Positions 1-33,259 of a stretch of DNA of 64,000 bases are shown piece by piece. The stretch is from Candidatus Omnitrophota bacterium (lineage in GTDB: Bacteria; Omnitrophota; Gorgyraeia; Gygaellales; Profunditerraquicolaceae). Within the stretch, counting starts at the first letter, position 1. Every line of letters begins with the position of its first letter. The notes beneath the pieces were generated by a model. It was given only the letters and a program-made list of their open reading frames with translations, was not told the origin of the DNA and did not search any database. The stretch lies in contig JAQUPI010000003.1 of NCBI GenBank assembly GCA_028716705.1, positions 7,737 through 71,736 on the forward strand, read 5' to 3'. Made by a program: the position numbers and the translations under genes.

Positions 1-1
1 G

Positions 2-3000
2 GAAAAGGCCCTTGCCGCTGCAAAGCGCATCCAGGATAATTACGGCATCACCAGATGGCTGGCAAAGCGCATCGCCGTTCATCATCCCATTAATCCGGAA
101 GATTTTGCCCAGAACGCCCTGAAGGTAGCCGCGCAGCTTCAGGATAAATACGGCATAGAAAAAGGATGGGCCCTGCATGCGGCGGTGCGTAACCCCACCG
201 ATCCGGATGCCTTCGTCGCAGGCATAATTAAAAAGAGAAAAAATGCGTATGAACGCATATTGGTCGGCCTCGTCCCGCAAGCGCCATCAAAGGTCAGATA
301 TGAGCTAAAAGACGGCTCCATAAGAGAGATCTCCGACGCCAAACATGAATATCGAATATCGTTAAGCAAAGAAGAAACATCCAGAGTGAGCCAGGTGACC
401 GTTGAAATAGAGCAGGCTAAACTGGTCAGGAATGTGATCAGCAGGATTCGCCTGGGAGTATTTAAGGGTTCGCCCTTGACGCGCATAGCCGGCATTTTGA
501 AATTCCTGGAAGTCAAACCCGGTGAAAAGTTCCTGGATCTGGGTTCAGGGGACGGTAGGGTGGTTTTCCTGGCCAATGCCTTATGCGGCGCCAACTCCAC
601 GGGGGTGGAGATAGATGAACGGCTATTGAATAAGGCAGAGCTTGCCCGTGGGCGGTTGATAGAAAAAGGCATCGTAAACCCCGAAAGAATAAAATTTGTC
701 AAAGGCGATTTCCTGCAAGAAGACTGGTCCGCTTATAACCTGTTGTTCTATTACTCCTTCGGAACGTTTAAAACCGATAGTATCGTGGAAAAAGCCATCC
801 GTGAGATAAGGCCGGGAGCCAAGCTGGTTGTCCTGGCGCTGAAAAGGGTCTCCTGGATGAACCACTTCGACGATTTTACCCGGCTTATGGACGCTAACCG
901 GTTTACCTTCCATTCGGAGCCAGGGCTGGGCGTCTGGGTATTTACGCGCAAAGGACCCGCAAATGACTGGTGGCAGGACAGCGGACTTTACGGGCCTTGC
1001 TATCGCATCGCCGGCGCGGAAAAGATCGAGGTCCATTTCTGGCCCAGGCCGTACCAGCTTAAGAGGGATATCATTAAATTACATTCGGCTTATCCGCAGA
1101 TCCGCAGCGTAACCAGGGAGGATCTTGCGCCTTTGGCACAAGCTATGCGTTTGGTCAGGGACGTCTGGCCTGGGAAACACGATGAAATATTGGATTATAC
1201 CAGGAAGATCAATATACGGCCGGAGCCGAAGCTTCCTTTAGCCCTTGGATTCACCGTACCCGGAATTAACGGATTAATGCTGCTCAACTCTTACTTCACG
1301 GATGTGCCTTCATTGACGGAAACCATTATCCATGAAAATCAACATTCCTATTTCATCAGGGAATATTATTCTCAAAAACTGGAAAACAGTTCAGAACATC
1401 TTAACAGGGCATGGGGCAAACAGCTTACGGTCCAGGGCCTTTTAAGCGAAACAGTCGCTTACCTGGAAATGGTGAAGTTCAGGATGCTCTACTGGCGCGG
1501 CATGATCAAAAACGACCCGGATACAGCCTTTAGAAAAACGTATCAGAAACAGACCGGGGACCTGTTGAAAGAGATCGGTTCGGTATGCGACCTGATAGCT
1601 TATAAGCTATTCGCCTGCCCCTCCGTCCTTGGCAAAAATCAGGTCGATCTATTCCTGAGAGCCAGAGAAGAACTTTCAGCTATTGAAAAAGAAGCAGGCG
1701 CGCCATTCGAGGCAACCTCCGGCCTCTTCAACAACCTGACCAAACGGAAGATTGCGCGGTTTTTCAAGGATATCGATTCAGGCAGGATCGGGCTTAAGGC
1801 AGCGGAAGGCTTCAGCGGTTTTGATACAAAGATAGAAGGCAAACAGGTGAAATTCTACGAAATGGTCTTCGCCGGCAAAGCGCCTCCCTGCGCCTTTGCC
1901 AGACAAAAAGACAATCTCCTTGAAATATACTTCTCTTCTGCCGCATTAGAACTCCTTGAAAAAGAATTCAAGCCCGAAGAATTCCCTGGGCTCTCCCAGG
2001 TCATCGCTCTACACGAATACGCTGAAACAGTCAAAGGCCTCTCGCATCAGGAAGCCGTCCTTTGCCAGCGCGTTGCAGGCCTGGAAGCTACAGCCGATAA
2101 ATTAGAGGCGATACAATGCAGGTTCTATACAACAACCATAAGCAAATTTATAAGCCAGGCATTCCCGAAAGGAACGATCCTCGCGCCTTCTTTCGCTAAT
2201 CCCACGGACACCAGAACAGCCGAGGGCAACCGAAATGCCTGCCTGGATATCCATAAGACCGGGGAAGGGTTCATAGTAGATATTCCCGAAGCGGAGGAAG
2301 GATCCAAAGGCAAGATCATTTATCCCTATTACGCAGTGGTCCCCGTAATCATCGCCGCCAAGGATATACCCGCTTCGCTCAAAGAGGCGATCGGCGCCAC
2401 AAAGGCAAAAGAAAAAGAAGTTACAGAAAAGACCGGCGAATATCTTAAGGAAGCCGCGTCTAAAGCAATGCTGCCGGTGATGGCAAAGCAGGCGCGTTCG
2501 CATAAATTGACGGATAAGGGCATGCGCGCCCTTGATGCCGAGTCAGTGATCGCCATTATTAATCCGGTTACGGGCGATCTCCTGGCGCAGGTGACCTTCT
2601 GGGCAAAGGATAAGGAAGAAATTCTCGCCGCAGGAAGGATCGCCGCTAAAGAAAGCATGCTTACAGATCTGCCTGAAGAATGGTACAGGCAGGCGGATAT
2701 CGCCGATTCTGTTTCCGCGTTAGGATTTTTATCCCTGAATGCCATCAGGTTTTTCGAAGAATTGCGCCAAAGTAATAAAGAAGCCAAAGACCTTCTGATA
2801 AGGGTCATCAGCGCCATTCAACCCGGGGAACTACTCAAACTGGATGGCATCGAATATGACCGGACTATGGGCGTCTTCAGGTCGGCAAAAGACAAGCCCG
2901 AAGAACTGTATATGGGCAAGAACCTGGAGTCATTCCTGGCGCAATTGAACACCGTCCAGCAGCTGGCCAGCCTGGTTTACTTTCTGGCTGTTCCTTCATA

Positions 3001-6000
3001 CGATCCTGTAACCCGGCGCGCGAAAGGCCTTACGCGCTACGCTGACCTGGAAGAAGCCGTTATCAGGTTCTATTACCGTTTATACAGGAAACTGGATGAG
3101 TCGGCTATCCGTAACTTCAAGGATATCCGGGTCTTCGAGCCGCTGAGAAAAGAAATCGGCATATTCGCCGGACGCCTTAACCGTGCGGTGCGCCGGAAAA
3201 ACGCCCTGGAATTCAACGCGCAGGACGCCGGATCGATAGTCAGCGGATTGAAAGGGAAAGCGGCGCTCAGCGAGGAGGAGATCTCGGATCTAAGCGCAGG
3301 GCACAGGTTGTATGATATTTTGCAGCTGGCCGAGATGCTCAGCGAAGATAATTTCGTCAGGGCCTTCTATTCCTGTAAAGTGGAGGCGCCGAAGAGAGTT
3401 TTACCCGAAGAAAAGCCATACGAGGCATATGACGGCACCGGCAGGATCGCGCGGCTGGCCATGGCCCTGAGATTGGTGAGCGACCTGAATAATCCGGCGC
3501 TTTCGCCTGATTACAAGAGCCGGTTCCTGGTCCGGAGCCGAAGTATCGCAGGCGCGACGATGGAAGAGAAATTCGCTAATTGCAGGGAGTCCCTTGAAGA
3601 AATGCTTGCCGACAGCGTTATCGCCTCTTCGAAATTGACCGTGAAGACAGCGCAAAAAGATGTCGAGCTTTCGGAGTTAATCGCGGATAGAAGGGTAACC
3701 TTTGTTGCCGGCGCCAGGGCGCTGAAGGCAAAGCTTGATTCTTTAACTGATATGGAAATAGAAAGCGTTTACCCGGTAAAGGTTCTTTTGGACGGCAGGG
3801 AGATCGCCCTGGCTTATTTCCTCGATTGCGACAAGGGTTTCAGGGCACGGGCTAAAGAAGAGCGCGTGAATGTGTACAATATACCCAGGCCGAATATCGT
3901 GATCGACAACGGCGTCGCTTACCATTTCAGCTTAATGATCGATGCTACGCCCGGAGGCGTTGAGGTAGTGGGGTGGAAGGAAGAAGAGGTTAAGGCCCTT
4001 TCCAAAGAAGAGTTAGACAAGAAGAAGATAAAGGAGCTGAGCGGCCCCACTGTTTTTGAAATGGTGGGAACAGAGAAGATCGACGATCCGGAGTATAAGC
4101 TGGAGCCGGTTTCCGAGCTCCGGGTGCTCAGGCAGCTGAGCAGGCAGATCGAAGAGAAGCGCCTTGAACCAGGAGAACGCCTTACCTATATCAAGGCCCA
4201 GATCGGCAAGCTCACCCTTCCTCTGGGAGGCGGGGTACATTTCTTCGGCAGGTTCCTGCACAAGCTTCCGCTCATAAAAGAGAATGGTTTTAACTATATG
4301 ACGCCTACCTCCTGCAGCACCAACGGCGCTTCTTATTTCAGCCTGGCTTTATCCACGATCACCGGCCTTGGCCTTAAGAACCTGTCGCTTCTGGGCCTGA
4401 CTTATCATATGTACACCTCAGGCAGCGACGCCAAGCAGGTCTATGGGCACCTTTCCCCGAAATCCACCGGAGCGGCCAAGGGCGTCACACAACATCTTAA
4501 ATTAGCAGCAGCGCTGTTTACCGCAGTGCGTACTCCTACCGCCTTTAAAGACGGCCAAACGGATGTAGTAGGAGGCTCTATATTCGATTTTATATTGCAG
4601 CTGCCGTATCCGGTAAAGAAACAGACCCTTATCGCATATTTAGAGAGAGTAGGGATGGAATTCCCTGAGATGCTCAAGGTCTTTGAGGGCCGCCCGGATT
4701 ATAAATGGCAAAATACGATCACCGGCCAAAGGACCGGCTCCATCTTTTATGAAGGGCTCTTTTCCCAGGTCAATGCGAATACGTTCCGGGCCTTCGTCGG
4801 TTATGACAATGAGATGAGCTATTCCTTTAAGATGGACGAAATGAAGGAGGCCTATTACGAACTTCTAAAGAGGCAGCGCGACAGGATGGAAAGATACTAT
4901 GCCCTGCCTTTAAACGGCGAAAAGATCGATAACTATATCCGCAAGGAACCCTGCGAGGAAGAAGGCACCGGGGGCAGTTCAGTGGTTTACAGGTGCAGCA
5001 TCGACTCGATCAAAGGAAACAAACTCTTCAACACTATCCGCATGGCGAAAAAAGTCCGTACAGAAGGGGAAAATACCTTTTACCGCAATGTCATCTTAAG
5101 CCTGCTGGATGAGTATTTCCTGAAGAAAGGCAATTATTCAGTTTCACATATACCGGCGCCCCTCGGATGGATCAAGAACGCCTGTTTCTACATCTTCGTG
5201 CAGGGAGAAGAAGGTTTCCCCTGGGATTTGGGGCCCTTCGGCCACGTGCAGATCGAGGAATGGAACAGCTGCATCGGCTCATTTGGCGCAGCGGGGGTTT
5301 CCCTTTCCAGCGATGTCACTACGCCTGACGACGGAAGGGTATCAAAGAACATCATCGTGGAACCTTATAAAATTTCCGAATTGTACGAAACCATGAAGCT
5401 TTCCAAGATCTGGAAGAGGATAGATGTAGACTCCGGAAGCGTGGGTATAAGGGAGGAAGAACTGGAAAGGTATATCAGGGAGAATCGTGATAGTCTGCAA
5501 AATATCCTGGGATGGAAATTTTCTTTATTGGAAACGGTTTTTGAGATATACTTCAAGGGCAAAAACGCGCAGAAAGAAGGGAATTTCACGCAGCTTTTCG
5601 GGAAGTACCAGAAAGAAATATTAAGGGAATACCTGTATCCTTACAGCAAGCAGGGGATAACCGACAAAATGACCGAATCGAGGAATAAAAAGATACGCCC
5701 TGTAATATTGATCATATTGGACGGTTTCGGTTACAACAGGGAGAGCCGGGATAACGCGGTCGTCCTGGCCAAAAAGCCGGTAATCGACAAGTTGATGAAC
5801 GAATGTCCTTCCACCCTTATCAATACTTCAGGTTTGGCCGTTGGGCTGCCGGAAGGCGAAATGGGTAATTCCGAGGTCGGGCATTTGAATATCGGGGCCG
5901 GAAGGGTGATCAGGCAGGATGTTGTGCGCATAAATGACAGCATAAAAGAGGGGGCTTTTTTCTCGAACGCTGCCTTAAAAGAAGCCGTGGTTCATCTCAA

Positions 6001-9000
6001 GAATAATCCCGGAAGCAAGTTGCATCTTATGGGATTAATTTCTAACGCCGTAGTGCACTCGAGCATAGGGCACCTCCACGCCTTGCTGCAATTTGCTAAA
6101 CAGGAAGGCTTAAAGGACGTATATGTGCACGCAATAACCGATGGCAGGGATTCGCCTCCGCAGAGCGGGAAGGTTTGGATCCAGGCGCTTTTGGAAGAAA
6201 TACGCAAGATAGGCGCAGGCAGGATAGCTACCGTGTGCGGCAGGTATTATGCCATGGACAGGGATAACCGCTGGGAAAGGGTGAATCTGGCGTATGATCT
6301 TTATACGCAGGGAACAGGCATAGAAGCTCAGGACGCCATAGCGGCTTTGGAGGGATCTTACCTTAATGAGCCCAGAGGCGATGAATTTGTAAAGCCGGTC
6401 GTCATGGTCAACCCGGAGCAAAAGCCCTTAGCCTTGATCAAAGACGGTGACGTGGTGATCTTCTTTAATTTCCGGGCTGACAGGGCCAGGGAGATAGCCC
6501 GCGCCTTCATGGATAAGGAATTCAAGGGTTTCGAAAGAAAAACCCATCCGAAGATAAAATGGCTTTGTATGACCGAACACGATAAATCATTCTACGATTT
6601 CGCCGGATTGTCGGTAATATTCTCTCCGGAGCCAAGGTCAAATACCCTGGGGGAGGTCATTTCCAAAAACGGATTAAGGCAGCTCCACATTGCGGAAACG
6701 GAAAAATACGCGCACGTGACCTTCTTCTTAAACGGCGGAATAGAAAGGCCTTTCGAGAATGAAGAACGGATATTGATACCTTCCCCGAAGGTCGCTACAT
6801 ACGACTTGAAGCCGGAGATGTCCGCCAGAGAAGTTACAGAAGCGTTAACGAAGAGGATAAGGGAAGGGACGGATGATTTCATTGTGGTCAATTACGCCAA
6901 CCCGGACATGGTCGGGCATACCGGCATCCTGGAGGCGGCGATCAAGGCGGTAGAAGCGGCAGATGCCTGCTTGGGAGAGACTTTAGAAGCAGTCAACCTC
7001 CAAAAGGGAGTAGCGCTGGTGATTGCCGACCACGGCAATGCCGAAGAAATGTCCGGACAGTATAAGACTTCGCATACGTTGAACCCGGTACTCTGCATTT
7101 TGGTTGATCCGCATAAGCATCTGGGGAAAGTTTCCCTGCGCGAAGGAGGAGCTTTATGCGATATCGCCCCGACATTGCTCGAGATCCTGCACATAGAACA
7201 GCCGCGGGAGATGACCGGAAAGTCGCTTTTCGATAAAAAGGGCCACGCCTTTTGCCCCAAAGACGGCTTTATCGCTTCCGCTATAAGCTTGGGGGCCGGC
7301 TTAACCATAGCGCTTGGGCTGACCTTCCTTTTGGGCAGCGTGTCGGCCATAATAATCGCGGGTTTATTTGCCGGTTACGGCATCTGGACTTCAGTAAAGT
7401 TTGCGCTTCTGGGCAGGGCGACTTTCAATATAGCCGCCAATATGAATCCGCATTTACCTGCCCGCACCGTCCTTTCTTACCCTGTTGCCAGATCCGACGG
7501 CACAATAACCTCTGAATTTGAAGCCCTCCGGAAAGAAAACCCCAAAGCCGCAAAAGAAATCCTTACGCACGAAAGCTCCAAGTCGCATTTCTTGGGGATG
7601 CTGAAGCTGCTGCCCGGCAAATTCATACTTTTATCTATCGGGATCGCGGCTTTAATCCTAATTTTAGGCCAGAAAATAGAGTGGGGATCCGGGACGGTTG
7701 GCTTGGCTATGGTATTCGGAGGGATGTTCGGCGGCGGTTTCCCGAAAGCAAAAATCCGCCTGTTCTTCAAGATAGCCATAGGAAAAGCTGAGGGCGATAA
7801 AGAATTTGCCGCGCAGATCCTGGAAGAAATAGCGAATAAAGGCATGGCCGTGGGTTTCGCCGCGTCAAAAGATGAGCGTATTTTAGCTTTTGAATTATGG
7901 AAACGGTTCCTGGAGATCCAAACCCTTAAGGATTACGCGAAGGACATATCAGAAGAAGAAGCCGAAACAAGGATTCTGGAGATCATCCGCAAGAGATACG
8001 CCGAAGAATCGCAGGTCATACTGGATAATGAGGCGCTGGCAAAGCTATTGGTCGGCTTAATGAGCCAAAACGAGGAGTTAAGCTTAGAGATAGACAGGAT
8101 ATTAACGAACGAATTGAATCTTGGTTTGGAGCTGCGGGAGATGATCAGGGCGGCGACCTCCGCTTCTGATCCTGAGTTGAGGGGATCCGCCCAAAAAGTA
8201 TGGAACGAATTCATAAGAGACGTCGTAAATTTCATAGACAGGGAGTTTAAGAAAGGCGCTGACTGGGGATACCCCATATTAGCGTATTTCGGCACTCCCG
8301 ACAACGCGGGCTTGAAAGCATTATTAAAGAAGATGTTGGAGGCGGACGATGATTTCTTTTACGACATTTACTTGTTTCTATCGTCAATAAGGCATTTGAA
8401 GGTATTGCACGGGGAATTATTGAAGGCCGGAGATTCCCAGGATGCGGAGTTATTGGAATATACGCAAGGCGTTTTCGAGCGTTTTAGCGTAATGAACGCC
8501 TCGGTAGTGGAATTATCTTTGTTCAAAGACGAATACGATGCCGCGGTCCATTCCTACATTAACTTCACGAATTTTTATTCCTTGGAAAAATTAAGGGCAG
8601 GGCTGGAGAGGGGCGCTTCCAGCGCATTAAATATATACAATGAAATTCAACCGTTATTGAGGGACGCGGATGAAAATGTAAGCGCAGAAGCCAAAGAACT
8701 GTTCGTTAAGCTGTTCCCCAAGAATGGGCGCACGCATAACCTGCGCCCCGTATTGCAGCTTGCGGCAGGAATAGCGACTTTGTTTGCGCCTGGAGCGGGA
8801 GCCGGGTTCTTAAGGGTTGCCCGGGAAACTTACAACGCTAATTTGAAGTACATCCGTGAAATAAACGGCAATAAAGGCCCTCCTGCCCTTAAGCAAAAGA
8901 TTTCAGCGTGGTTGCGGCCTGTTGCCTGCGGTATTTCCGCGGCTTACATAAAATGGTTTATTTCCGATGAAGCCAAAGACAGGCTATCTTCCGGGACGAT

Positions 9001-12000
9001 AACTTCCATTACCACGCATGAATCCCAGCCTACGGAAATAAAGGGCCTGCTCGCGCAATACAGGCAATTCACTCAACGCAGCTTTACCGTCCGCCTCAAG
9101 AAATTATTTAAAATATTCTTAGTTTGCGGTTTCGCTCCTTTAGGAATGATCATGGCAGCGCCCGGTCCGCGCAGAGAAGAAGGCGATGCGGAGAAAAGAT
9201 TCCTGGAAGGGGCCAGGCAGGCGCGGATTGCCTTGCAAAGAAAAGATTATCAGTTCGCGCTGGAGATCATCCGAAGCCTGGGCAGCTGGAAAAGGTATTT
9301 CTCAGGGGCATCATTTGACGAATTGTTCAAGCTTAACGGCCTTATCCCGGATTACAATAAGGAACTGAAGAATGCCCTTTCACAGGCATTGAGGCAGTTA
9401 CTGCGCGTCAAAGATCAGGCAGAGATAGGCAATCCGGTGCCCTTGGCTTCCATCATCTTCGCAAATTGCTTTTTAAGCAATGTCTTTCGGACCTGTCCAT
9501 GCCGTCTTTCCAGGCAGGATGTAGTGAATCTGCTTATGGATGCGGGTTTGAAAGTGCCGTTCCTCAAGGAAGAACCCACAAGCCAGACGGCCGTGCCTTT
9601 TTACCTCAAGTTCTTGCTGAACGCGCTTAAGAAGGATTACCTGCGTTCCGACGCGAATACATTTATCGCTTATTATGATACGGCGGGCGCGCTGCTGGCG
9701 TTTGATATATTGCCAAAGTCAAATTTAAGGCACATTTTGGTTTATATGGTTTATGGCGCGAATTGGCAATGGCATTCAAAGATACTGGATTCCGCAGGAC
9801 CGATACGTTTGAAGACGGCAGAAGGCGGATTACTTACTTACAAGATCGTTCAACTTGAGACCATCATCGGTGCGATAAAAGAAACGGATCTTGTCGCCGG
9901 CCTTCCGGATCAAATGGACGCTATTAGAAAAAGGATTGCTTTAATTGAGGGATACGCGGCTCCCTTGAGCGCATCGGGCAGGTCAACGCTGGATGAGATA
10001 AAAAGAAAAGCAGCGGGTAAAATGTCCGCCGAAGAGCAGGAAAAAGTCCTCGCGACCTTGAATAATCCGCCTTTCGCGTGGTTTGAGACATACTTTGAAA
10101 GGATAGAAAAAGAAAAGGCGCTGAAAATGGTTTTAAAAAGCAAGTCGCCTCTTGAGATGATCGTGACCAAGGGCTGTTCCGTGCAATGCGACTATTGCAT
10201 ACGCGCGTCGGAAGCGCTTAAAGGCCCTTATTACATGCCCTGGCCCTGGATAAAGGAATTGATCGGTTTTAACGGCGAGCTTAAGAGCCTGATAGAAAAG
10301 AAAACCCAAGACGCTTTTTCTTATAGAGACGAAGAGGCCAAGATCATCCGCACCTGGTTTGATAATGACCCGCTGCGCGACTACTATGACCCGCTTTATG
10401 ACAAAGATTACGCGGATATAATCCTTGAGATAATCAAGAACGGCTCAATTTCACAGGATGGGTTTTATATACCTACTTCCGGATGGGAGATCGGTTCGAT
10501 AGGGGAACGGGCGATGCGTAAGCTCATAGATATCAGGAGTGAAAATCCCCATATCTTATTTTTGATAAAATTCAATATAAGCACTGAGAAAGAATGGTCC
10601 AGAAAGTTAGGGCGGGATGAATACATCAGGCATATGAAAGCGGCATATGCCTTGGCCAGGCGTATACGTTGTTCCATTGAAACAGGCGAATTAGATAAAT
10701 TCACTTATTGGTCAACGGGGGCATTTGATGCCCAGCTGATAAAGGAAATAGTCGGTGAAGGAGTGGACGACCATCTTCTCGAGATTTTATCCAAAACGCA
10801 TAAGCCGAAAAAAGCCGGCAAAGCCGCCAAATACTCTAAAGAAGAGTCCTGCGAATATACGGACAAGGAAGATTGGATCCTTTTCAGGCCGGACAGAGAT
10901 ATTGAGAAATTCAAGCAATACGCGGAAGCGGGAAAAGGGTTAATAACCCGGGAGTCCTTATTGCCTGTGTTAAGTAAACAAGGCAAAAGGAGGATAAAAA
11001 TTATCGGCCACCTGCCCAAACCTATCCAGCGGCCTTTACTTAAGGCGTTAAGGCCGATGCGGTTTAATGTAAATTCGCCTGTAGAATTATTGACCTTGAT
11101 GACAAAAGAGGAATTATTAAGGGTGGGTAAGGGCTTGCGCCTGGGAGAAGGGGCTATACGCGAGTTGGAGGAGATCCTGTCAAAAGAGGGTCTGTCTCTT
11201 GGCGTAAGCTTGCCCGAAGGGCCCTCTTATGAAATTAGAATAACGGGCAGCGCAAGCGTACCCGGGATCAATGAGTTCTCTGCTTTAATCCAGGGGGAGA
11301 TCGATCATTTCAAGAAGCTTTTAATTTTAAGGGACAAAGAGGTTCTCACCCTGATCAAGGGCTTTCTTCAAGCGGTTATCCAGGATATAAAAGACACAAA
11401 CACGCTTTCCGATGAAGAGGCGATGGAAACGGCAAATTACGCTTTAAAGAATGATACTAATACCCTCCGGTCAGCGCAAGGCAGGGAAACCTGGAGATTT
11501 GTTAAGGGCAAGGGGGTCATGGTTGAGGGTAAGGATGAGATCATTAGTAAGGAAATATTCTTCAGCACCGCCCTGGGTAACCTGGTAAGCGGGATCACGG
11601 GGAACTTGGGGGTAGTAAGCGCTGATCCTTTTGCCCAACCCAAGCTTTTGGCCGACGAATTAATGCAGTTGATAGATAGCATTATGACTTATCTTGCATA
11701 CGTCCGGGCTCTAGAAATATGTTATCCGGTGCGCGGTCTCGGGCCTGGAACATACGAATTTTCGGGGGAAATAATATCAGATGGAGGCATTACCTCGCGG
11801 ACGCTGGAATCAGCGGGATTTGACGCGCATAAACGTTCCAGGGTTCTTGAGGCGCTGACAAAGATCCGCAAGTTTAATGTTCATAATCGCGATTTCTCCT
11901 TTGAAAGATTGCAGGAGAAAATAAAAGGCTTACTGTTATATGAAGGAAAATCAAAGGAATTGGCCCGCAGGGCCGTTTATAACGCGCTTATAAATATGGG

Positions 12001-15000
12001 AAAAGCCGCCTCCAAGGGCGATGCTGGGATAAGTCAGATCCTGGGATTGGCGGGCGAATTGTCCGGAGTATATGAGGTGGTTATAAACAGGGGTAATACG
12101 CTGGAAAAAATAAGCCTGGGAGACTTAGAGGCGATAAACCATATTGTTTATGATGATAATGCCGCGAAGAAAGAATTTGACGCGGTCAGCACGAATACTG
12201 TTTTTGAGTTTAAATTCCACCTTACACTGCGTAAGCTTTACCAGCAGGTGATCGGCATAGATTCGGCGCATCTGCCGCACCTGAAGGTGCTGGAAATGTA
12301 TCCCGAGAGATTTTCTAATATACGGAACATTGTTTATTTCGGAGAAGCGGAGAGCGGATACGTAGTAAAGGCGATAACGGCATTTCTTAACAGCCTCTCG
12401 CGTGAGCGCAGGGCTGATATTGTGAAGAGGATAACGATAACCAGGAATAAGGGAGTTTCCATAAAATTAACATTGGCGGAAACGGCGGAATTTCTCTGCG
12501 CCGGATCAACCATGGACTTTGTTATAGAGGAAGGGCGCAGGCACGGGAACGCATTCCCGGTAAGGGATTTTGCGCGTATACGCAATTGCGTAAGAGAGGC
12601 GATAGGAACTAAGATCAGGCAGCTTAGGGAGGGAGAGAAGTTCGATGTAATTATCGGCGTAAGCAGGACTTCCCCTCAAAATATAGAAGGTATCAGCGGC
12701 GTAAAGAGTTCAAGCGCCGCGGAGGCGGGAGAAGCCTCCTTACTCCTGACCAAGCCGGATAATACGGTATTTTTATCCGCTATGCAAAAGGATAGATTCA
12801 CCAGAGACGGGCTTTATACTTTTAAAGATATTATAGCCAGTATTATGGCAGAACCGTTTTCAAGAGCTGCCGCGATGGCGGAAGAAGAAACATTGAATGA
12901 GGCAAACAGTATAAAGCGCAGCATCCCCGGATACGAAGGTTTTGAAATCAGGGATATTATTAAACGAATGGCAAAGACGCCTGAGACATGGGAAGATGTT
13001 TTAATCCAGGATTTAATAGCGTTGAAAAATCTAAGGGAGTTTTACGAAAGGAAAAAATACCTGGAGGAAGCTTCGAGACAGGAGCTGATTAATGAAACTT
13101 ACAACCACGAAGTCCTGATGCGCGCCTGGAATATCGTGAGCAGCCGCGCCGCACAGGAGAGTAAATTACGCACTGCCTTAGAGCACGAAGAAGCCGGTAT
13201 AGCCGCTTCGAAAACAGGGGATTACGCTTATGAAATAGCCGCTTACAGGTTAGCTTTAAATCATCTTCCCCAAGGCGGGAATTTCGCAGCTTACAGGCAG
13301 CGGATTGAAAGCCGGCTTAAGAATGCTATAGAATCGGCAAGGTTGAGAAACCAGGGCAAAGGCAAGATGAATGGGAACACGCGAGGCCAGGGCGGGATCG
13401 GCAACTTAGATGATAATCAAGCAGAAGAGATAAAGGGTTTGATAAGCCAGAATAAACGCAGGCTCCTTCCGGCCGCCAGGAAACTTATAGACTTATTTGA
13501 CGGCGTTCCGGTTAATGTCTATTTTCTCACCAGCCAGATCACCCGCGCCCCGCCGAAGGGCTTCATCTGGGAACAGATCAAAGACGGCGAATTACATATT
13601 TATTTCTCCTCCTTAACCTGCTACAAGCAATACGCTCAGATACCTTCCGCCTTAAATTTCTTCTCCTGTCACGGTACTATCGAAATCAGCACGATGATGC
13701 AAGGGGTTTCCCCCGGGCAGGCGCATACCATCGCCTGGGAAAAGGCTGCCCAAAGATATCCCCAGGCCGCCAGGGAAATAAAGGCGTTGCTTAAGAAGAG
13801 AGTCTGGCGCGAAGACGGCAGGATAAGGGTTTCACAACACAGCTACATCGCCAGGAAGACAAGAGATGTCACCAGGTATGTTTTAAGCGAGGGCGCGGCA
13901 ACCCACAGGACAATGTGGGAGGCATTCCGGGCCGAAGACCACCGTATTGATTCGGAGTTGGAGGACAGGATCAAATGTATCCGCAATATGGGATTGATCT
14001 CGCAAGCGGTCAGATCACTTGAAGGCCAGAAATCGCCATTAAAAGAAGAAGAACGCGGCAAGGTCATAGAGATCGTCCGGGAAATGAGCGCCTCAATGGT
14101 AAAACCCGCGGGCAGGCCGAAGATCTCGGAAAAGATAATCTCGCAGATCCTCTCAATAACCGCTCAGGAATTGATCGACACAGTCCAGGAGCCGCGCCAT
14201 GAAGCCATTGAACTGCTTAAGAACATCCATGAAAACCTGAAGCTGCGCAAAGAAGGCGCCGAAAGGATAATTGCCGGCAGGCGGATTGCGCTTAAGGAAT
14301 TGAGAGAAATGTCCAGGTCTACTAATATGGATATCTCGCGCCGGGCGGAAGCGGCGGCTAAACTGGCGCAAAGCGGCGAATTGAATAAGGCCAAAGGCCA
14401 GATACTGGGCATAACCAGGCTAGGCATTATCAAGGGAGAGCCGGAGTATTCCCCGGTCAAACGTCTGCTCTTTGCGGCCTCAGGCGCCAAGGATGAGAAG
14501 AGGGTTTCTGCGGTCCTGGATATGGTCAAGCAAAAGTTAAGAGAGATCGAGTTTCTTTATGAATTCATGATCAAATACCGCGATGACCTTTTATCCAAAG
14601 AACTTAAGGAAGACGCGCCTGTCGATAAGCAACAGCTCTTGAAGGAGACCTTTGTATTTTTCTGGAAGACTGCCAATTCCGAATTCGCCGATCTGTTGAA
14701 CAGATCGCTGAAACAACGCGCCATCTGGTGGGCTAAGGTATACAGGGCAATTTGTATTTCCCTGAATATCAATGACCCTGAAAACAGGTCGCAGCGGATC
14801 CCCAATCCGGTATTTCTGGGCATAGCGCGCTATATCCGTTTACTGGAATACAATTTTATCGAAGATCTGTTGGGGAAGAGGGACATCGGCGCCAAGGTGA
14901 GGGATATTCTGAAGGAGGCGCAGAGCGAAAAGAGAAAAAGCGGCAATGTAATACGTAAAGAAAATGAGCTTAAAACCTATATTGTCCAGGATGACCTGGA

Positions 15001-18000
15001 TGGATTAGCAGAAGCGATCTCGCAGGATCTCAAATTAAACCCGGGAAAAGAAAGACAGGATCTGCGGGGTTGCGTATGGAAAGAAGACAGGCCCAGGCCG
15101 CAGCAAAGCGCAACCAACGTGAAAACCTTACCCGGTCCTCCCGCTGAAAATGTGGGAGAAAAAGCCGGCGAAAATAAAGAGCCGCAAACAGAACTGCGGC
15201 ATATAAGATCGGTTTTAGGATCCGGCCTGTTCAGGCAGCGTTCTCCGGAAGAGCTAGCGTATATTGAGAGGGACAATTACGAGCGCTTTATGAGAGAAGT
15301 AAGGATGAACTGGGTATATCATAACGCCAAAAACTATATCCTGGAATACGCCAGGGAAATGAACGAATATGAAAAGACCGCCTCAAAGATAAGCGCCTAT
15401 GAGAAAAAGACCCCAAAGAGGAAGAGAAAGATAAGAGGGCAGATATGGTTTCTTCTGAAATGGGCGGCCGAGGGAAGGCATTTTACGAAAATCCAATCCG
15501 AGCGCCTGGCCAGGCTTGTCCCGGCTCCGGAGCCTGTTCCGCAAGACTCAAAGCCCGCATTCGAGCCCAGGCAGTTAAGCTTCGATCTCGGACAGATCAA
15601 ATTCGGCGTTGCCGAAGGCAATATCAACGGCAAGAAAGTTAATTTCCTTGCGGATGGAACCGGCATGACGGATAACCTCTGGATCCCTCCGGTACATTCC
15701 GGTTTTTCAGTTTTCCAAGGAGATTTGGAAAGGTTTATCCGCATGACCCCGGAGAAGTTCACGGCATTGATCCTGGGCTTGCTGGCAGGCAAAGCGCTGA
15801 CCTTGAAGCAGAAAGAAGAGATAGGCGCTTTTTGCTCTGCCATAAAAGAGATTTACGGGTTGAGAGAAAATTATCTTTTTGAGGGCCACTACCCTTATAT
15901 TTGCGACAGTTACGCAAGAAGTACGGCCGAAATACTTCAAAAACACGGCTTGAAAGCCAGAGAACAAGACAGGAGTTGGCCTGAATTGAAACGGGTGCTG
16001 ACCGATCCGGCCGACGATCCCGAGCACCATTTTGTCAGGTGCCGCATAGCCGGGTACAATTTCATCGTCGACATCACCGCTGACCAGTTCGAGAGGGAAG
16101 ATGAAAAGGGCAAATACCAGCAATTAGGCATTGTGGTCCTGCCCGTGCAAGAGGCGCGCAAAGACCCCGCCAGGTTCTGGATGTATAACAGGAAGCTGTC
16201 CGATTCATTCTCCGTTGTTCCGCCGGGGGAACGGCCGGACGCGCTTGGGCAGTTCGCGGAATTCCTAAGGATATTTGAAGAAGAAAAAAGGGAGGCGTTA
16301 GCGGATATCCTCTGGCCTGCCGTTAAAGCCAAAGATAAAAAGAAAGAGGTTTTCAACAGGGAAGATCAAGGGCGGATCTCGAGGTTAAAATACGCCCTGG
16401 CCGAACTGAAGGCAGAGAAGATAAAAGTCTTATCCGTAAAGGAAAAATACCCGTTCGATATAACCGACTCCAAGCTTACATTCGTGGCCGATATGGTTTT
16501 GGATGGCAATAAAGGCAGGTATTTCATAAAGACCCGAAGGACGTGGACGAATGAGCCCGAAGACGATGCCTGCAAAGTGCTGGAAGAATTGTGCCTGCCT
16601 AACTCCGCTACCGTTGTGGTAAGGGATTATTTTGTTTCCAAATACGTGGGCGACGCGGACCTGACATGGGTATCAGCCGAACAGATGAAGAACAGGGAAT
16701 TCAGGAGGGGGCTGTGTTTCGAATTGGGCCGGGCATCGGCAGCGGCTTATATCATAGGGTTAGCAGACAGGTCGCCGACCAACATACGCATATGCATGGC
16801 CAGGGATAAAAAATGCGTTTTGGCGATCAATACCGACTTGACTACCGCCTTCCAGCTGCTTGAGCTGCCTTCTGAAGTGGGCGAGCAGTGCATTATCTTG
16901 AGCTTTCTTTTCAACCTATCAAAAGAAGCAGGATTGGAAAAAGAAGAGTTCAGGTGGATAATCCGTTACTTTATAGAAGGATTCTGCCAGCAATATTCGA
17001 CCACAGGCAAATATTACCTTAAAAACTCCGGCAAGATAGATAATTGGTTATCAAATCTGAAGTATTACCCTCTTGTCAAAAAAAGATTATTGTTGCAGGA
17101 GGAAAAGATCTCAGGGCTTTCACAAGAGATTGAAAATAAGTTCAAGCAGGATTATTGCCGCGATCCGGAACTGATTGGGGACGCGGAAGATATGAAATTG
17201 GAAGTATTGATCCGCATGACCGTGGAAAAAGCGGAAAACCTAGGGATGCCGCTTACGAGATTCGATGAGCTGCTGATAAGGGGCACCGGGCAGCTGGTAA
17301 AAGAAGCGCATAAGGACCAGAAGCGCAAGTCCGGGGAGCCTTATTTTAATCACCAGTTGGAGGTTGCGACAGAGGCAAATAATTTTGACCTGTCGGAGTT
17401 CATAATCAACGGCCTGTATACGCTGATGACCAATATAGCGCTCTTCCATGATACCCGTGAGGACCAGGGTAAATCTTACCGCGAGATCAAGCACGGGATA
17501 GAGAGACGGCTTGAAGAGACAAAGCTGCACAGGACGGGCGAAAAAGAAGCCTTAAGGGCGTATAACCTGCTGCGTTTAGGCGTAGCCATGCTTTCGAAAT
17601 TGGAAGGCGGGGAGTGGAGATGGATTCCGTCGACCCTGGGAACGCGGCCGGATGTTTCCTGCGAACCGGAAGACGGGATAACCCCGGAAGAATTGACGCC
17701 TCCGGCAAGAAAGATCGAAGGCAAAGGCGGCTTGTGGGTTTGGCAAGATATGAGCCCCGGAGAGATCAAGGCGGAGTATTACCGCCGGCTCGTAAACCCG
17801 CGCAGCTTATTTAATAAACATATATTATTCCCCGAGTCGAACCGTTATGCCGACTACAGCGATCTGTTCATCAGAATGATACAGGTGATCAAATTGGCCG
17901 ACCGGATCGCGAATTTCCGCGACCTGGCCAGTTTATTCAAAGCAGGCATGGATATTACAGAGTCAAAGGCCTTTGTAGAGAAGGTTTTCAATGAAACCGC

Positions 18001-21000
18001 GGAATATTTCCTCCCTGCGTTCGTGGAAAGCTCGCAACACCTTACTTTTACCGAAAAAATCAATTTCTATACTATCCTTACAGAGATAATAGACGGATAT
18101 ATCAAGAACGAAGACCCGGCCGCAAAGTGCCTGAAGGATGCGGCCGCGGATTTCAGGCTGAAGATCGAAGTGGTAATACCCGGCCAGGCCGAGGGCACAT
18201 TGTATTATCCTGCGGCGAGAAGAGATTTTAAGACGGTGGCATACTGGCTGGATGTTTTCACGGGGATAAGCACGGTGATCCTGGCTGACCCGCTGGTTTT
18301 CCCGAGGCGTTTAAGGGCGGTCGAGGAACAGGATAAGCGAGCAGAGATAAGCCTGTTCAAAGAAAAACTCCCCGAGGCATTGTTAAGCTCCGGATTCAGG
18401 CTGATTAAATTGCGGGAATTCAAAGATAAGGTCATATTCTACGCCTACTATAAGGCAAGGAAGATAAGATTCAATTATTATTTTCTCGATTATGCCGATA
18501 TGTATTTCAGGTATAAGAAAGGCCTTCCGTCAGTGGTCATCGCCTCCTACGCCGGCTGGATGGGGAATCTGCTCAGGGATTCGAATTTTTATACCAAGAT
18601 ATTAAGCCAGATGCGAAAGCCCGGATATCTCATAGCATACGCCGATTCTTACGAGGAAAGGCCGGAGGCGGTACTGGGAGACATCAAAAGATACGGAATG
18701 ACGCCGGTTAAAGGCAATCTTCCGGCAGGTTGTTATATTTACGTTAAGAAAGATGATTTTGCCTGGGAACAGATATCGGCATTGGAGGAGAGGCCGGGTA
18801 ATGTCAAAGTCGCGCTCAGGACATTAAAAAGCCATTTTTCCGACCGCGGCTGGTTTACCTTGAAAGATTTCCTCGGCAATTTAGATTCGCAGTTCGCAAA
18901 TTACCCGAGAATGAAGAACGGCCATGTCCTGAACAGCCGCAGGGCGATAACCAATCTCTTGAGGTTGAAAGACCGCGGAGTAGAAGTCAGAAATAACGGC
19001 AAGGCTTATGAGTTTCGTTACCGGCAAGAGTCGGGGGAAAAATCCAGGAACTGGCCGAAAAAAGTTCCTTTAAAGGCGAAAGAAAAATACGCGAAAGAGC
19101 CTTCATATGAATACAGGGTCATCGCCGGTTTTGATCTCGATAAGCGCAAGAAAGCCCCGGGTATTTCTTACGAAACGGCCAGGGCAAGAGAAGCGATCAT
19201 GATCAGGCTGCTTAAATTAATAAACAAGACCTCCTTGCCTTTGGCGCCGCCTTTTAATTTAAAGATTTCCCCGCAGATCGACACCTATGCAGGGACAGAG
19301 ATAGAAGGGCAGAATGTCATCCTGCATCCCGCCTTTTTTGAATTATCTGCCGCAATGCAGTTTATTATCCTCTATCATGAAGTAGCCAGCCACCTGAAAA
19401 AAAGGATATCCTCCGAACCCCGCGCGCTTTTTGATACGTTAACCGGCGTCTTGCGCGCCTTGCCTTTCATGTTTAATGCCGAAAAAGAAAGAAGGTTCAT
19501 TAAGGAGGTATTCCGCAGGAACGCCCGTTTCCTGGGAACGGGTAAAAAGAAACATCTGCCTCCCGTAAGCTATGATACGGAATGGCTGATCAGAAGGTTC
19601 GTATGCGGTGACGAAGATATAAAAGCGTTGATCCTCGGACTCTGCAAGCGATATTCCGGATCGCTGCAGAAAGGCCTGAAGCACTATTTTTGCGTCAAAC
19701 CGAGCGCGGAATTACTGGTCACGGTTTTAGTTTATGGCGATAAGTCAAACAGAGCGATCGCCTTGAAATGTATTACGGAGTTTGTTTACTCCTATGGCTT
19801 AGACGAAAAGAAAGTTATCGACGGCTGGTTGCAGGGCGATGACGGGTGGCTTAACAATATGGTCAGCAATATGACTATCCTGGAAAGCCTGGAAAGGGAA
19901 AGGCCGGGATCCGCCAGAGTTTTATTCAGGGAATTCGGGATCGCGGATTTCGGCAGATACAGCCTGGGTATGCTGATCACTCAATACGACGAAAGGGATA
20001 ATGCCGCTTCGCCTTACGGCCTGGTTATCTACCCGAGGCAGGATAATGACATAGAGAACGGCGGCGCCTTCTATAAAGATTCGCAAGTCCTGGATAATCT
20101 GCAAAAACAAGCCGGTGACTGCGGATTACTGTTAAGGGTAGTGGAATGTTCAAGTAAATATGATGTGGCCCGCAGGGTCATCAGGGCATACGAGCGTTAT
20201 GGAAAGATATCTTTCGCGGTCCTTGGAGGGCATGGGACCGAAAATTCAGTACAGTTCGGAAAAGCAAAGGACGCAGGAAGGCTTGTCAAAGGGGACCTGA
20301 GCGGTGCCGCGGAGAAAGCCGCCAAATTCTTTATCCCCGGGCCGTCAGTAATATTATCCTCTTGCTTTACCGGCCGCCCCGGAGGATTCGCCCAGCAATT
20401 ATCGCATGCGCTCTCTGCCACGGTCATTGGCCCGGAAGAATCCACCTTTATAGATAATATCAGTGTTTATGTAGAGGAAGACAGGGCAGCTTTCCAGGTA
20501 GAGTACCGTAAAGGATCCGCGAAGACATACTTAGCAGGAAAGCCGCTTGAAAACCGCTTCGAGGAGAATTCTTCCGCGCCATTGGGAGAATTGGCGGAGG
20601 CCAGAGAAGCGCCTGATAAAGATAACGGCAAGAACAGGGGCGGATCAGGGTCCAGATTCGATTTTGCTCCGGAAATAGACCAGGAGAAAAGAGACCAGCT
20701 AAAGAGTGCCGTTTTGAAAGAGGATTTCCTGAAGAGCAGCGTTAAGAATATCCTGGGGATAGACGGACTGGAGCTGGATGATGTAGAGCGGATTTCGCTC
20801 AGCTTGATAGAGAAGGCCAGGTTTACCGAGGTTTACAGGATGACGCTCAAGACAAAATCCGACGGCTTAAATACCCGGCGCAACGGCGAAAGCGCGTATA
20901 TAGTTTTGAAACAATTCACTGTCGGGGCGACTATGGACGAAAAAACGAACCGCATCAGCCGCCTGAGAAAATTATCATTCGAAAAGAAATCAGGGCTTGT

Positions 21001-32848: not shown

Positions 32849-33178
32849 ATGGACGAGAATAACGGGTTTAAAGAGGACCGCAGGATTTTCGAAAGATTTT
32901 CTGCTGTCATGCCCGCGAATTTGATCGATCTGGACGCGGGAAAGGAATTGGAAGCAACTACTTGCGACGTAAGCGCAAAAGGCGTAGGGGTAGTGTGCGA
33001 AGAGCATTTAACACCGGGAAACCGTTTAGAGTTGTGGTTAAGGATCAAAGACGGGAGAGAACCGCTTTACACCAAAGGCACGGTAATGTGGGCCAGGCCG
33101 GAAGAAGGCAAATGCAGGGCGGGTATCTTGTTGGAGAGGGCAGAATTGATGGGTATGGCGCGAATACTCAGATCGTAA
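32849..33178 (+). CDS. Single-domain PilZ protein (predicted c-di-GMP receptor). A GTG at 32840 is an alternative start.
   Basis: AGGAGG RBS at 32835-32840. Canonical PilZ motifs 'RRIFER' (RxxxR) and 'DVSAKG' (DxSxxG). It lies 52 nt after the giant ORF stop. Confidence 0.8.
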   Translation: MDENNGFKEDRRIFERFSAVMPANLIDLDAGKELEATTCDVSAKGVGVVCEEHLTPGNRLELWLRIKDGREPLYTKGTVMWARPEEGKCRAGILLERAELMGMARILRS

Positions 33179-33231
33179 GGAATAAAGGGTAAAATCTACA
33201 ATAAAATCCAGTAAAAAAAAGAAATTCTTGC

Positions 33232-33259
33232 TTGACAAAACGTATTTATATGTTATACT
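33232..33259 (+). promoter_or_regulatory. Sigma70-type promoter: TTGACA - 16 bp - TATACT with TGn extended -10
   Basis: TTGACA at 33232-33237 and TGTTATACT at 33251-33259, at near-consensus spacing. Confidence 0.55.

Follow-up and report, generated by a model that had tools for sequence, protein, structure and literature searches.

The window analysed here, a stretch of 64,000 nucleotides from contig JAQUPI010000003.1 (positions 7,737 to 71,736) of the Candidatus Omnitrophota assembly GCA_028716705.1, contains a giant open reading frame (ORF) in which a 2,3-bisphosphoglycerate-independent phosphoglycerate mutase (iPGM) is embedded. Unless stated otherwise, features lie on the forward strand and are given in window coordinates, with residues (aa) of the giant ORF numbered from the window edge. 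Frame 2 is open from nucleotide 2 to a stop at 32797, which amounts to 10,931 codons without a stop; this length is a lower bound, since the 5′-end runs off the window edge and the N-terminus lies outside it. The ORF (2..32797, at least 10,931 codons) encodes a multi-domain, apparently sparsely membrane-spanning protein of the Omnitrophota giant-gene type. Its iPGM module, composed of a phosphatase domain and an inserted transferase domain, occupies 5696..7231 (aa 1899–2410), as delimited by TIGR01307, Pfam, the structure 1EJJ and an AlphaFold2 (AF2) model, and is followed at once by two hydrophobic blocks. An initial annotation had placed the enzyme and its trailing helices at 5692–7790, which is essentially right. 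Downstream of the giant ORF are found pilZ, a conserved 507-aa protein (ORF2), two large glycolytic fusions (ORF3 and ORF4) and genes for sugar uptake and breakdown.

The module matches the iPGM family end to end. The NCBIfam equivalog TIGR01307 covers it over 2–504 of 504 positions with a score of 674.9 bits (cutoff 330.65), PF01676 over 2–251 of 252 (E = 4e-83), and PF06415 over 1–217 of 217 (E = 1e-78). The G. stearothermophilus iPGM (PDB 1EJJ) aligns collinearly over residues 4–509 of 511 with ~51% identity (E = 4.5e-160). In the AF2 model, which has a predicted local distance difference test (pLDDT) score mostly above 90, an alkaline-phosphatase-like domain carries an inserted transferase domain, and the best PDB matches in Foldseek are 1EJJ and 4MY4, with TM-scores of 0.85–0.90 normalised to the target. 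The catalytic serine is S1957 (codon at 5870..5872), which lies within the motif GNSEVGH and is equivalent to Ser62 of the G. stearothermophilus enzyme, a position fixed by 1EJJ and by the S62A mutant 1O99. Of the residues that bind Mn or substrate in 1EJJ, the six Mn ligands are all kept (D12 = D1907, D403 = D2302, H407 = H2306, D444 = D2343, H445 = H2344, H462 = H2358), as are, at aligned positions, all eight substrate-binding residues (H123, R153, D154, R185, R191, R261, R264 and K336 in 1EJJ numbering). Among 109 homologs, 118 alignment columns reach a conservation of 95% or more, and the module agrees with the consensus at 115 of them; the three deviations (Y to H, F to L and P to L) are not catalytic. 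The intact module claimed in the initial annotation is thus borne out by the full-length TIGR01307 and Pfam matches, by all 15 catalytic, metal and substrate residues and by the near-invariant columns. The degenerate domain considered there as an alternative, which would have lost the serine or a metal ligand in alignment to the B. stearothermophilus enzyme, does not apply. By every sequence criterion, the module looks like a functional iPGM and not a relic.

One local peculiarity is the motif SNAVVHSS, which stands where most iPGMs have SDGGVHSH and is specific to a clade. This substitution, together with the three differing near-invariant positions, could suggest a pseudoenzyme retained as a scaffold; alternatively, the embedding could result from a chimeric contig, a missed stop or a frameshift, given that independent Logan contigs confirm no more than the final 2.3 kb of the giant ORF. 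We consider both options extremely unlikely. Every catalytic, metal and substrate residue is kept and the TIGR01307 score is twice the cutoff, while the SNAV variant is common to the whole clade, including fusions of the P0024 type (see below). A run of 10,931 open codons cannot be due to chance, composition is uniform across the module junctions, and a JGI contig, an NCBI metagenome-assembled genome (MAG) and two further large proteins provide independent cases of embedding.

Two hydrophobic blocks follow the enzyme. Candidate membrane segments were defined as stretches of ~19 aa or more above a Kyte–Doolittle threshold of 1.6, with flanks judged by the positive-inside rule; Hessa-type insertion energies were computed as well. 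Block 1 (7265..7405, aa 2422–2468, 47 aa) begins 11 residues past the last iPGM residue and can be read as a hairpin of two membrane helices joined by a Leu-Gly turn, with Ser coming next. Within the block, D, E, K, R and H are missing from a run of 44 aa, the longest of its kind in the whole giant ORF. The block has a Kyte–Doolittle 19-mer mean of 2.31 and a summed insertion energy of −1.36 kcal/mol, the second lowest in the protein. Block 2 (7616..7741, aa 2539–2580) is a probable second hairpin with a Kyte–Doolittle mean of 2.35 and a Hessa-type sum of +0.9 kcal/mol. The two are separated by a basic loop of 70 aa (7406..7615), whose K/R-rich ends fit a cytoplasmic loop under the positive-inside rule. 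Only about eight regions in the 10,931 aa are as hydrophobic as these blocks, and none of them lies within the iPGM domain.

The distribution of the flanking charges fits membrane hairpins. In the five successive loops around blocks 1 and 2, the K+R counts are 4, 0, 3, 1 and 5: block 1 is flanked by 4 and 3 such residues, the turn of block 2 (QKIEWG) is neutral, and 5 K+R occur within the 15 aa after it. Both blocks thus pass the hydrophobicity threshold and have positive-inside flanks. The earlier description of about four hydrophobic helices within 10 residues of the enzyme is essentially right; there are two blocks, each with room for two helices and a very short uncharged or neutral turn between them. 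Its membrane-integrated reading is likewise favoured over buried helices by the Kyte–Doolittle means, the charge-free run and the flank charges, and blocks 1 and 2 would accordingly behave as membrane helices. Judged by the loop K+R counts and the positive-inside rule, each block resembles a helical hairpin flanked by K/R-rich segments. This arrangement would leave the enzyme, the 70-aa loop and the sequence behind block 2 on the cytoplasmic side. Two to four membrane crossings are predicted after the iPGM, and an even number is favoured.

Several observations weigh against this topology. AF2 predicts helices at aa 2422–2455 and 2460–2481 with low confidence (pLDDT below 60 in the hydrophobic segment), and it breaks block 1 elsewhere than the hairpin model does. 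The fourth helix, in the second half of block 2, is Gly-rich and borderline. Moreover, if two further, single hydrophobic segments at aa 3035–3053 and 8561–8581 span the membrane, helix-turn-helix (HTH) and other cytoplasmic-type domains would lie on the side opposite to the iPGM, so that simple counting gives no consistent global topology. Both segments (window 9104–9160 and 25682–25744) are isolated, are preceded by basic residues and resemble internal signal peptides. They may be relics of once-separate anchored genes.

The closest relative of the module, with which it shares 65% amino acid identity, is annotated by NCBI as a 1,203-aa '2,3-bisphosphoglycerate-independent phosphoglycerate mutase' (P0001; GCA_007280235.1, QYPY01000035.1, positions 1–3978 of locus L001), and its frame is open to the first base of the contig. 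A longer JGI contig of the same population (L085, Ga0163199_1000053) provides at least 2,440 further open codons upstream. P0001 is therefore the contig-truncated tail of an ORF that reaches at least 3,595 aa and in which the iPGM is again embedded. This giant ORF is also followed by pilZ and by the same transporter and glycosidase genes as in the window, at 65–85% identity. An Omnitrophota MAG carries an iPGM ORF that is open at both contig ends (P0009); an apparent GAPDH-like segment after this iPGM was noticed by eye, and Pfam reports none there. Among 1.84 billion representative proteins, the best match is a 2,349-aa protein with its iPGM at residues 888–1430 (P0143). A 3,482-aa protein combines PPDK_N, P-loop domains and a C-terminal iPGM (P0186), and about 140 of the best 150 matches listed are ordinary enzymes of ~500–600 aa.

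In a neighbour-joining (NJ) tree, the embedded and fused iPGMs cluster and have SNAV[VI]HS in common instead of SDGGVHSH. The clade of embedded iPGMs has a bootstrap support of no more than 45–58%, which counts against reading too much into their grouping, and a single ancient fusion is not claimed for this reason. The SNAV-type motif is shared between the Omnitrophota modules and the iPGM of the P0024-type fusions. The latter are enolase-iPGM(-PPDK) fusions of ~1,725 aa (L084 and L002, the locus of P0024) from a lineage in which TGA is read as sense; 13 in-frame TGAs occur under table 11. A metagenome scan for GLISNAV[VI]HSS retrieved two contigs only, one of which lengthened the nearest relative. 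A genome-contig scan with the iPGM and its membrane region returned ordinary iPGMs through the DHGNAEEM pattern, in loci of Clostridia, Geobacter and similar bacteria at 48–55% identity, and no relatives of the giant ORF.

The window, L085/P0001 and P0143 each have a hairpin of 43–47 hydrophobic residues close to the iPGM. Their position differs, being after the enzyme in the window, directly before it in L085/P0001 and ~100 residues after it in P0143, and all three have turns of 1–4 uncharged residues and K/R-rich flanks on both sides. The 890 aa after the module (aa 2411–3300 were searched) have no homolog at E ≤ 1e-3 among 5.8 billion proteins, so the conservation of the hairpin is judged from iPGM-adjacent hairpins in other proteins and not from orthology. 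The tether thus appears to be conserved as a feature, not as a sequence. Between the window and the nearest relative, dN for the module is 0.28, and no dN/dS estimate is available for this pair because synonymous sites are saturated. The iPGM module is best described as an apparent conserved island under constraint within fast-evolving sequence.

The remainder of the giant ORF is sparsely annotated. Pfam recognises a DOT1-like methyltransferase, the iPGM, winged HTHs, PCMT, HEAT repeats (HEAT_2), Methyltransf_11, TPR and a C-terminal VTT/DedA domain. Domain density is low, with ~10 recognisable domains in 10.9 kaa, and stretches of ~1,400 to 3,600 aa have no significant Pfam match. Candidate membrane segments number ~12. 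The ORF therefore combines more than 10,000 aa, several predicted membrane helices and mostly unannotatable sequence with HEAT and TPR repeats, methyltransferases and a sugar-metabolism enzyme, as expected for Omnitrophota giants. About 280 aa upstream of the iPGM, a very divergent GAPDH-like catalytic domain is tentatively assigned at 4289..4852 (aa 1430–1617). Its six best PDB matches are all GAPDH (E = 0.04–0.07), and in the PDB alignment its motifs SCSTN and YDNE face SCTTN and YDNE; Pfam returns nothing for aa 1430–1617.

Further features of the giant ORF were noted in passing. A domain of ~90–150 aa with the pattern '...IYFSS...H..' occurs, at ~32% identity, twice here (aa 604–682 and 4449–4586) and once in the giant ORF of the relative (aa 725–865 of the L085 translation); it is the sole similarity between the two giants apart from the iPGM. 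A CX3CX2C motif (CSVQCDYC) at window ~10440–10470 (aa ~3480) resembles a radical-SAM cluster site, and its region has no Pfam match even at E ≤ 1. After the C-terminal DedA/VTT domain, a tail at aa ~10815–10862 (window ~32444–32590) alternates basic and aliphatic residues (KISVKKISIKPVRIIIKGIRIRVRPLKIKVRALRIKIKKLRIKVKRLKISIKKLIIKK). A minus-strand ORF at 6892–7350 was taken to be a shadow ORF. Checks of the region for Rfam families, tRNAs and antisense ORFs were empty, and the window contains no rRNA or marker gene. A recoding artefact behind the long open frame was rejected, as neighbouring genes terminate normally under table 11. Recent horizontal insertion of the module, or a chimeric contig, was rejected on the uniform composition across its junctions; in GC, GC3 and codon usage, the iPGM module equals the rest of the ORF.

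Typically, iPGM is a free-standing monomer of ~57 kDa (PMC2964296). The module departs from this soluble form: it is embedded, and neither a stop nor a clear start marks its borders. This architecture has no bearing on the family membership of the iPGM domain. The module is nevertheless a conserved island with sharp boundaries, flanked on either side by orphan linkers, and a Met codon precedes the first aligned residue by 9 residues, at the place expected for the start of a free-standing gene. These features could be explained if the giant chain were a polyprotein that is cut, so that the iPGM would act as a free or hairpin-anchored enzyme of ~60–75 kDa instead of remaining within a chain that exceeds 1 MDa. 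Autoproteolysis has in fact been proposed for Omnitrophota giants because C39 and S8 peptidase domains occur close to the N-terminus. Within the visible 10,931 aa, Pfam detects no SecA_DEAD, C39 or S8 peptidase domain, and no cleavage-like motif recurs at the module borders; cleavage is therefore considered improbable, and the giant chain is presumed to stay intact. Less likely by far is an internal start, by which the iPGM and everything downstream would also be made from the ATG at 5669–5671, without the upstream 1,890 residues. This ATG is preceded by AGGGGA, but the purine motif is weak and 11 nt away, whereas clear genes in this region have GGAGG-like sites 6–8 nt upstream. In addition, the frame remains stop-free for another 9,040 codons, so that no normal-sized enzyme would result.

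Directly 3′ of the giant ORF is a small pilZ gene (32849..33181; PF07238, E = 9e-11), followed by ORF2 (33393..34916), which encodes a conserved 507-aa protein with a signal-like N-terminus. ORF2 shares 47% full-length identity with a 509-aa gene product in the Omnitrophica MAG locus L088, which occupies the same position in its locus, and is preceded at 33232–33259 by a near-consensus promoter-like site (TTGACA-16-TATACT). Further 3′ (48.7–58.2 kb), after ORF3 and ORF4, are genes for a solute-binding protein (SBP) and two BPD permeases (an ABC sugar importer), as well as MFS and GH2-like genes; ROK and LacI regulators are also present in the locus. In Omnitrophota, giant genes are immediately followed by pilZ and then by solute-binding proteins, permeases and glycoside hydrolases (West-Roberts et al., 10.1101/2023.11.21.568195), and the same succession is found here. 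The window locus is syntenic with GCA_028711865.1, and the named homologs of both ORF3 and the iPGM are Candidatus Omnitrophica/Omnitrophota MAGs, relatives that point to an Omnitrophota host.

ORF3 (34951..42408) encodes, according to Pfam and NCBIfam, an N-terminal hydrophobic leader, PFK, an aldolase-like region, a GAPDH-like domain, GAPDH, PGK and a C-terminal domain. Its length is 2,485–2,500 aa depending on the start. It is 100% identical to Logan protein P0121 (SRR22315506, SRR22315508), and the remaining homologs, which carry the annotation Candidatus Omnitrophica/Omnitrophota, are fusions of the PFK/aldolase/GAPDH kind. An exact-sequence look-up of the 2,500-aa version and of the SBP returned none; only the 2,485-aa variant is on record. 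The class-II-aldolase-like region yields sub-threshold matches only, and a PDB sequence search with this part found nothing. At aa ~970–1250 (window ~37800–38660) lies a degenerate GAPDH-like domain whose catalytic Cys, judged by eye, appears to be lost; the second GAPDH domain is a good match. The PGK (window 40153–41400, aa ~1762–2159) is circularly permuted: a segment equivalent to PGK residues 292–392 (1VPE, E = 1e-21) precedes the segment equivalent to Pfam PGK positions 7–276. ORF4 (42454..48141) encodes a 1,895-aa dikinase of the PEP-synthase/PPDK type (PF01326, PF00391, PF02896), with a leader and the same type of C-terminal domain; its score against the NCBIfam PEP synthase is below the cutoff.

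The C-terminal 226 aa of ORF3 and ORF4 (window 41722–42405 and 47455–48138) are 51% identical. In 14 Omnitrophota fusion homologs, this domain of ~226 aa likewise stands at the very C-terminus, as it does in the L088 dikinase fusion. AF2 confidently predicts an alpha/beta fold for it (pLDDT 89), and it has no Pfam match and no clear PDB match (best Foldseek E = 9e-4, TM ≤ 0.36). At the other end, the N-termini of ORF2, ORF3 and ORF4 (33393–33480, 34951–35060 and 42454–42560) consist of a short basic stretch and a hydrophobic helix of 21–24 aa. The leader is also found in all full-length ORF3 homologs (P0122–P0139) and in L088 at 8439, 10001, 15181 and 23034. In the glycolytic fusions, a conserved x-[D/S/N]-x-L-R-[P/T/A] motif comes after the helix, and an AxA-like site is often present; for ORF2 and its L088 homolog, the resemblance to these leaders is limited to the signal-like N-terminus. 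A 'KDGG' motif after the leader occurs in many fusion homologs and is missing from ORF3 and ORF4 of the window. Taken together, these features suggest a targeting leader that is specific to the lineage and is carried by glycolytic fusions dependent on ATP and NAD. If the leader is a signal peptide, such enzymes would be exported. Its K+R charges are nearly balanced (2–4 versus 2–3 on the two sides), with LR(P)K on the C-terminal side, so that it may instead be an N-out/C-in anchor.

These leaders bear on the side of the membrane on which the iPGM works. Signal-like N-termini are present on ORF2–4, on the PFK-fusion homologs and on the dikinase and TIM-PGK-enolase fusions of L088, and they would suit an extracytoplasmic iPGM on the outer face, processing prey-derived or extracellular sugar phosphates or moonlighting in an adhesin-like role. 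Sugar-phosphate enzyme domains of Omnitrophota giants have been predicted to be extracellular (West-Roberts et al., 10.1101/2023.11.21.568195), although those authors themselves doubt the predicted localisation, and 39% of long proteins combine a signal peptide with transmembrane helices (bioRxiv 10.64898/2026.06.07.730766). Further membrane crossings may also lie upstream, as the N-terminus of the giant ORF is outside the window. Nonetheless, the K/R distribution at both hairpins, and at the hairpins of two relatives, places the iPGM inside. PFK, PGK and GAPDH require ATP/ADP and NAD+, which are unexpected outside the cytoplasm, and the orientation of the fusion leaders is itself ambiguous from their charges. 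An outward-facing iPGM thus seems unlikely, and a cytoplasmic, membrane-tethered enzyme is preferred.

Whether the iPGM and its neighbours form a single glycolytic unit, as the initial annotation proposed, can be answered in part. The module does supply the step from 3-phosphoglycerate (3PG) to 2-phosphoglycerate (2PG) that is absent downstream, as neither ORF3 nor ORF4 contains a phosphoglycerate mutase. The composition assigned to the fusions (PFK-FBA-GAPDH-PGK and a dikinase) holds for PFK, GAPDH, PGK and the dikinase; for the aldolase, there are sub-threshold matches only. In favour of one unit, the order giant ORF, ~508-aa protein, PFK fusion and dikinase fusion is kept in L088, where a TIM-PGK-enolase fusion comes after the dikinase fusion and holds the TPI and enolase steps. 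Elsewhere, iPGM is fused to PPDK domains or to enolase plus PPDK (P0186, P0011, P0023, P0024), and these fusions support the view that the module and the dikinase encoded downstream are linked in function.

Other evidence speaks against a self-contained unit. Neither Pfam nor tblastn with enolase- and TIM-containing queries finds an enolase or TPI in the 64-kb window. A gap therefore remains between the iPGM and the dikinase, and the three large ORFs together do not encode all steps from fructose 6-phosphate to pyruvate, with TPI and enolase absent and the aldolase sub-threshold. Linkage of giant ORF and fusions is present in L088/L089 and absent beside the iPGM-bearing giant ORF of L001; this nearest relative (L001/L085) has no adjacent glycolytic fusions. 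The promoter-like site before ORF2 means that co-transcription with the giant ORF is not implied. Furthermore, the signal-like N-termini of ORF2–4 and their homologs hint at a compartment different from that of the iPGM, and with a charge pattern that places the iPGM in the cytoplasm, a common compartment is unproven. Cooperation of the iPGM with the ORF3 and ORF4 fusions is accordingly likely but unproven.

The reading that we favour, and consider probable though far from certain, is that of a catalytically competent, Mn-dependent iPGM that is tethered to the membrane on its cytoplasmic side, as one module of a giant Omnitrophota protein, and supplies the mutase step. The enzyme would interconvert 3PG and 2PG through a phosphoserine intermediate. 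It could be inserted into a longer chain without loss of function because the enzyme is monomeric and has both of its termini in the phosphatase domain. The two hydrophobic hairpins directly after it would dip into the cytoplasmic membrane. With K/R-rich sequence at either end, each hairpin would keep the enzyme and what follows it on the cytoplasmic face. The module would thus constitute a membrane-tethered enzyme unit in a long chain that crosses the membrane only sparsely. It most likely provides the phosphoglycerate mutase step of the cell. Its partners would be the membrane-targeted PFK/aldolase/GAPDH/PGK fusion and the dikinase fusion, together with TPI and enolase encoded elsewhere, in the setting of a locus for sugar uptake and breakdown.

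A more far-reaching idea is that the whole glycolytic trunk of these bacteria is built from membrane-targeted megaproteins and not from soluble enzymes, as a membrane-fixed assembly line beside the sugar importers. It is suggested by the occurrence of iPGM in giant proteins near positive-inside hairpins in at least three lineages, and by the presence of PFK, aldolase, GAPDH, PGK, TPI, enolase and dikinase in fusions of 1,500–3,300 aa with a common leader and a C-terminal domain of ~200 aa. We regard it as speculative and on balance rather doubtful. In a radical version, glycolysis might even take place on the outside of the membrane, where it would face the prey.

An essential housekeeping enzyme that is apparently present only as a module of a giant membrane protein offers a testable case. 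If the genome has no other phosphoglycerate mutase, translation of the giant ORF to at least residue 2,410 would be required for glycolysis. Were the module the sole mutase, it could be argued that giant ORFs are constitutively expressed metabolic scaffolds and not merely predation devices. As a monomeric enzyme with a known structure and assay, iPGM may also serve as a handle on the cleavage of giant proteins, the sidedness of their domains and the activity of embedded enzymes. Pathway-completeness calls in Omnitrophota can miss steps that lie within giant ORFs, and surveys may mislabel such enzymes, as illustrated by the label of the 1,203-aa iPGM fragment at NCBI.

Compared with free-standing GpmI (1EJJ/1O98, TIGR01307), the module is alike in its two domains, ~51% identity, nucleophile, two-Mn site, substrate residues and predicted fold. 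It differs from this ~57 kDa enzyme in its location near residue 1,900 within a chain that exceeds 10,931 residues, in the predicted membrane hairpins that follow it and in the SNAVVHSS motif. Giant genes of Omnitrophota ('Archaeovorins') have been described by West-Roberts et al. (2023; bioRxiv 10.1101/2023.11.21.568195), and giant ORFs by Seymour et al. (2023; PMC10066038). The proteins of the former contain many membrane helices, HEAT and TPR repeats and embedded TPI, GPI, FBPase, PGM/PMM, FBA and PPDK domains (10.1101/2023.11.21.568195). The window giant resembles them in its very long ORF, scattered helices, HEAT/TPR repeats, mostly unannotatable sequence, glycolysis-type domain and pilZ, transport and glycosidase neighbours. 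Unlike them, it carries an iPGM, which is absent from the published list of embedded sugar-phosphate enzymes, and shows neither a SecA_DEAD nor a C39 domain in its visible part. The type II/IV secretion-like locus described upstream of giant genes would lie beyond the window edge. Its visible 10.9 kaa, which represent a truncated ORF, are below the 30-kaa 'giant' class of Archaeovorins.

In the 'multi-enzyme metabolic' class of long proteins, membrane helices or signal peptides are found in ~94%, and proteins with a 'TM-only' topology are interpreted as having cytoplasmic domains that helices fix to the membrane (bioRxiv 10.64898/2026.06.07.730766). The window giant shares with this class its varied Pfam families, the lack of a dominant repeat, methyltransferases, sugar enzymes, HEAT repeats and predicted membrane helices, and differs in its low domain density. 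In the portions of text consulted, iPGM is not named in either giant-gene preprint (10.1101/2023.11.21.568195, 10.64898/2026.06.07.730766), and those of the latter do not mention neighbouring PFK/GAPDH/PGK and dikinase fusions. A 2010 survey of bacterial phosphoglycerate mutases recorded no iPGM fusion. Thermotoga-type PGK-TPI (NF010569), enolase-iPGM-PPDK (~1,725 aa) and PPDK_N-iPGM proteins resemble the locus in that consecutive or nearby glycolytic steps are joined. In these compact fusions, among them P0011, P0023, P0024 and P0186, only enzymes are combined, whereas the iPGM of the window stands apart from its pathway neighbours, among unrelated or orphan sequence. Giant membrane-anchored multi-enzyme ORFs of Omnitrophota, including those with glycolysis-type domains, are thus already published, and the window is a clear new example. 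More unusual than the embedding of the iPGM are the common leader and C-terminal domain of the glycolytic fusions and the circularly permuted PGK.

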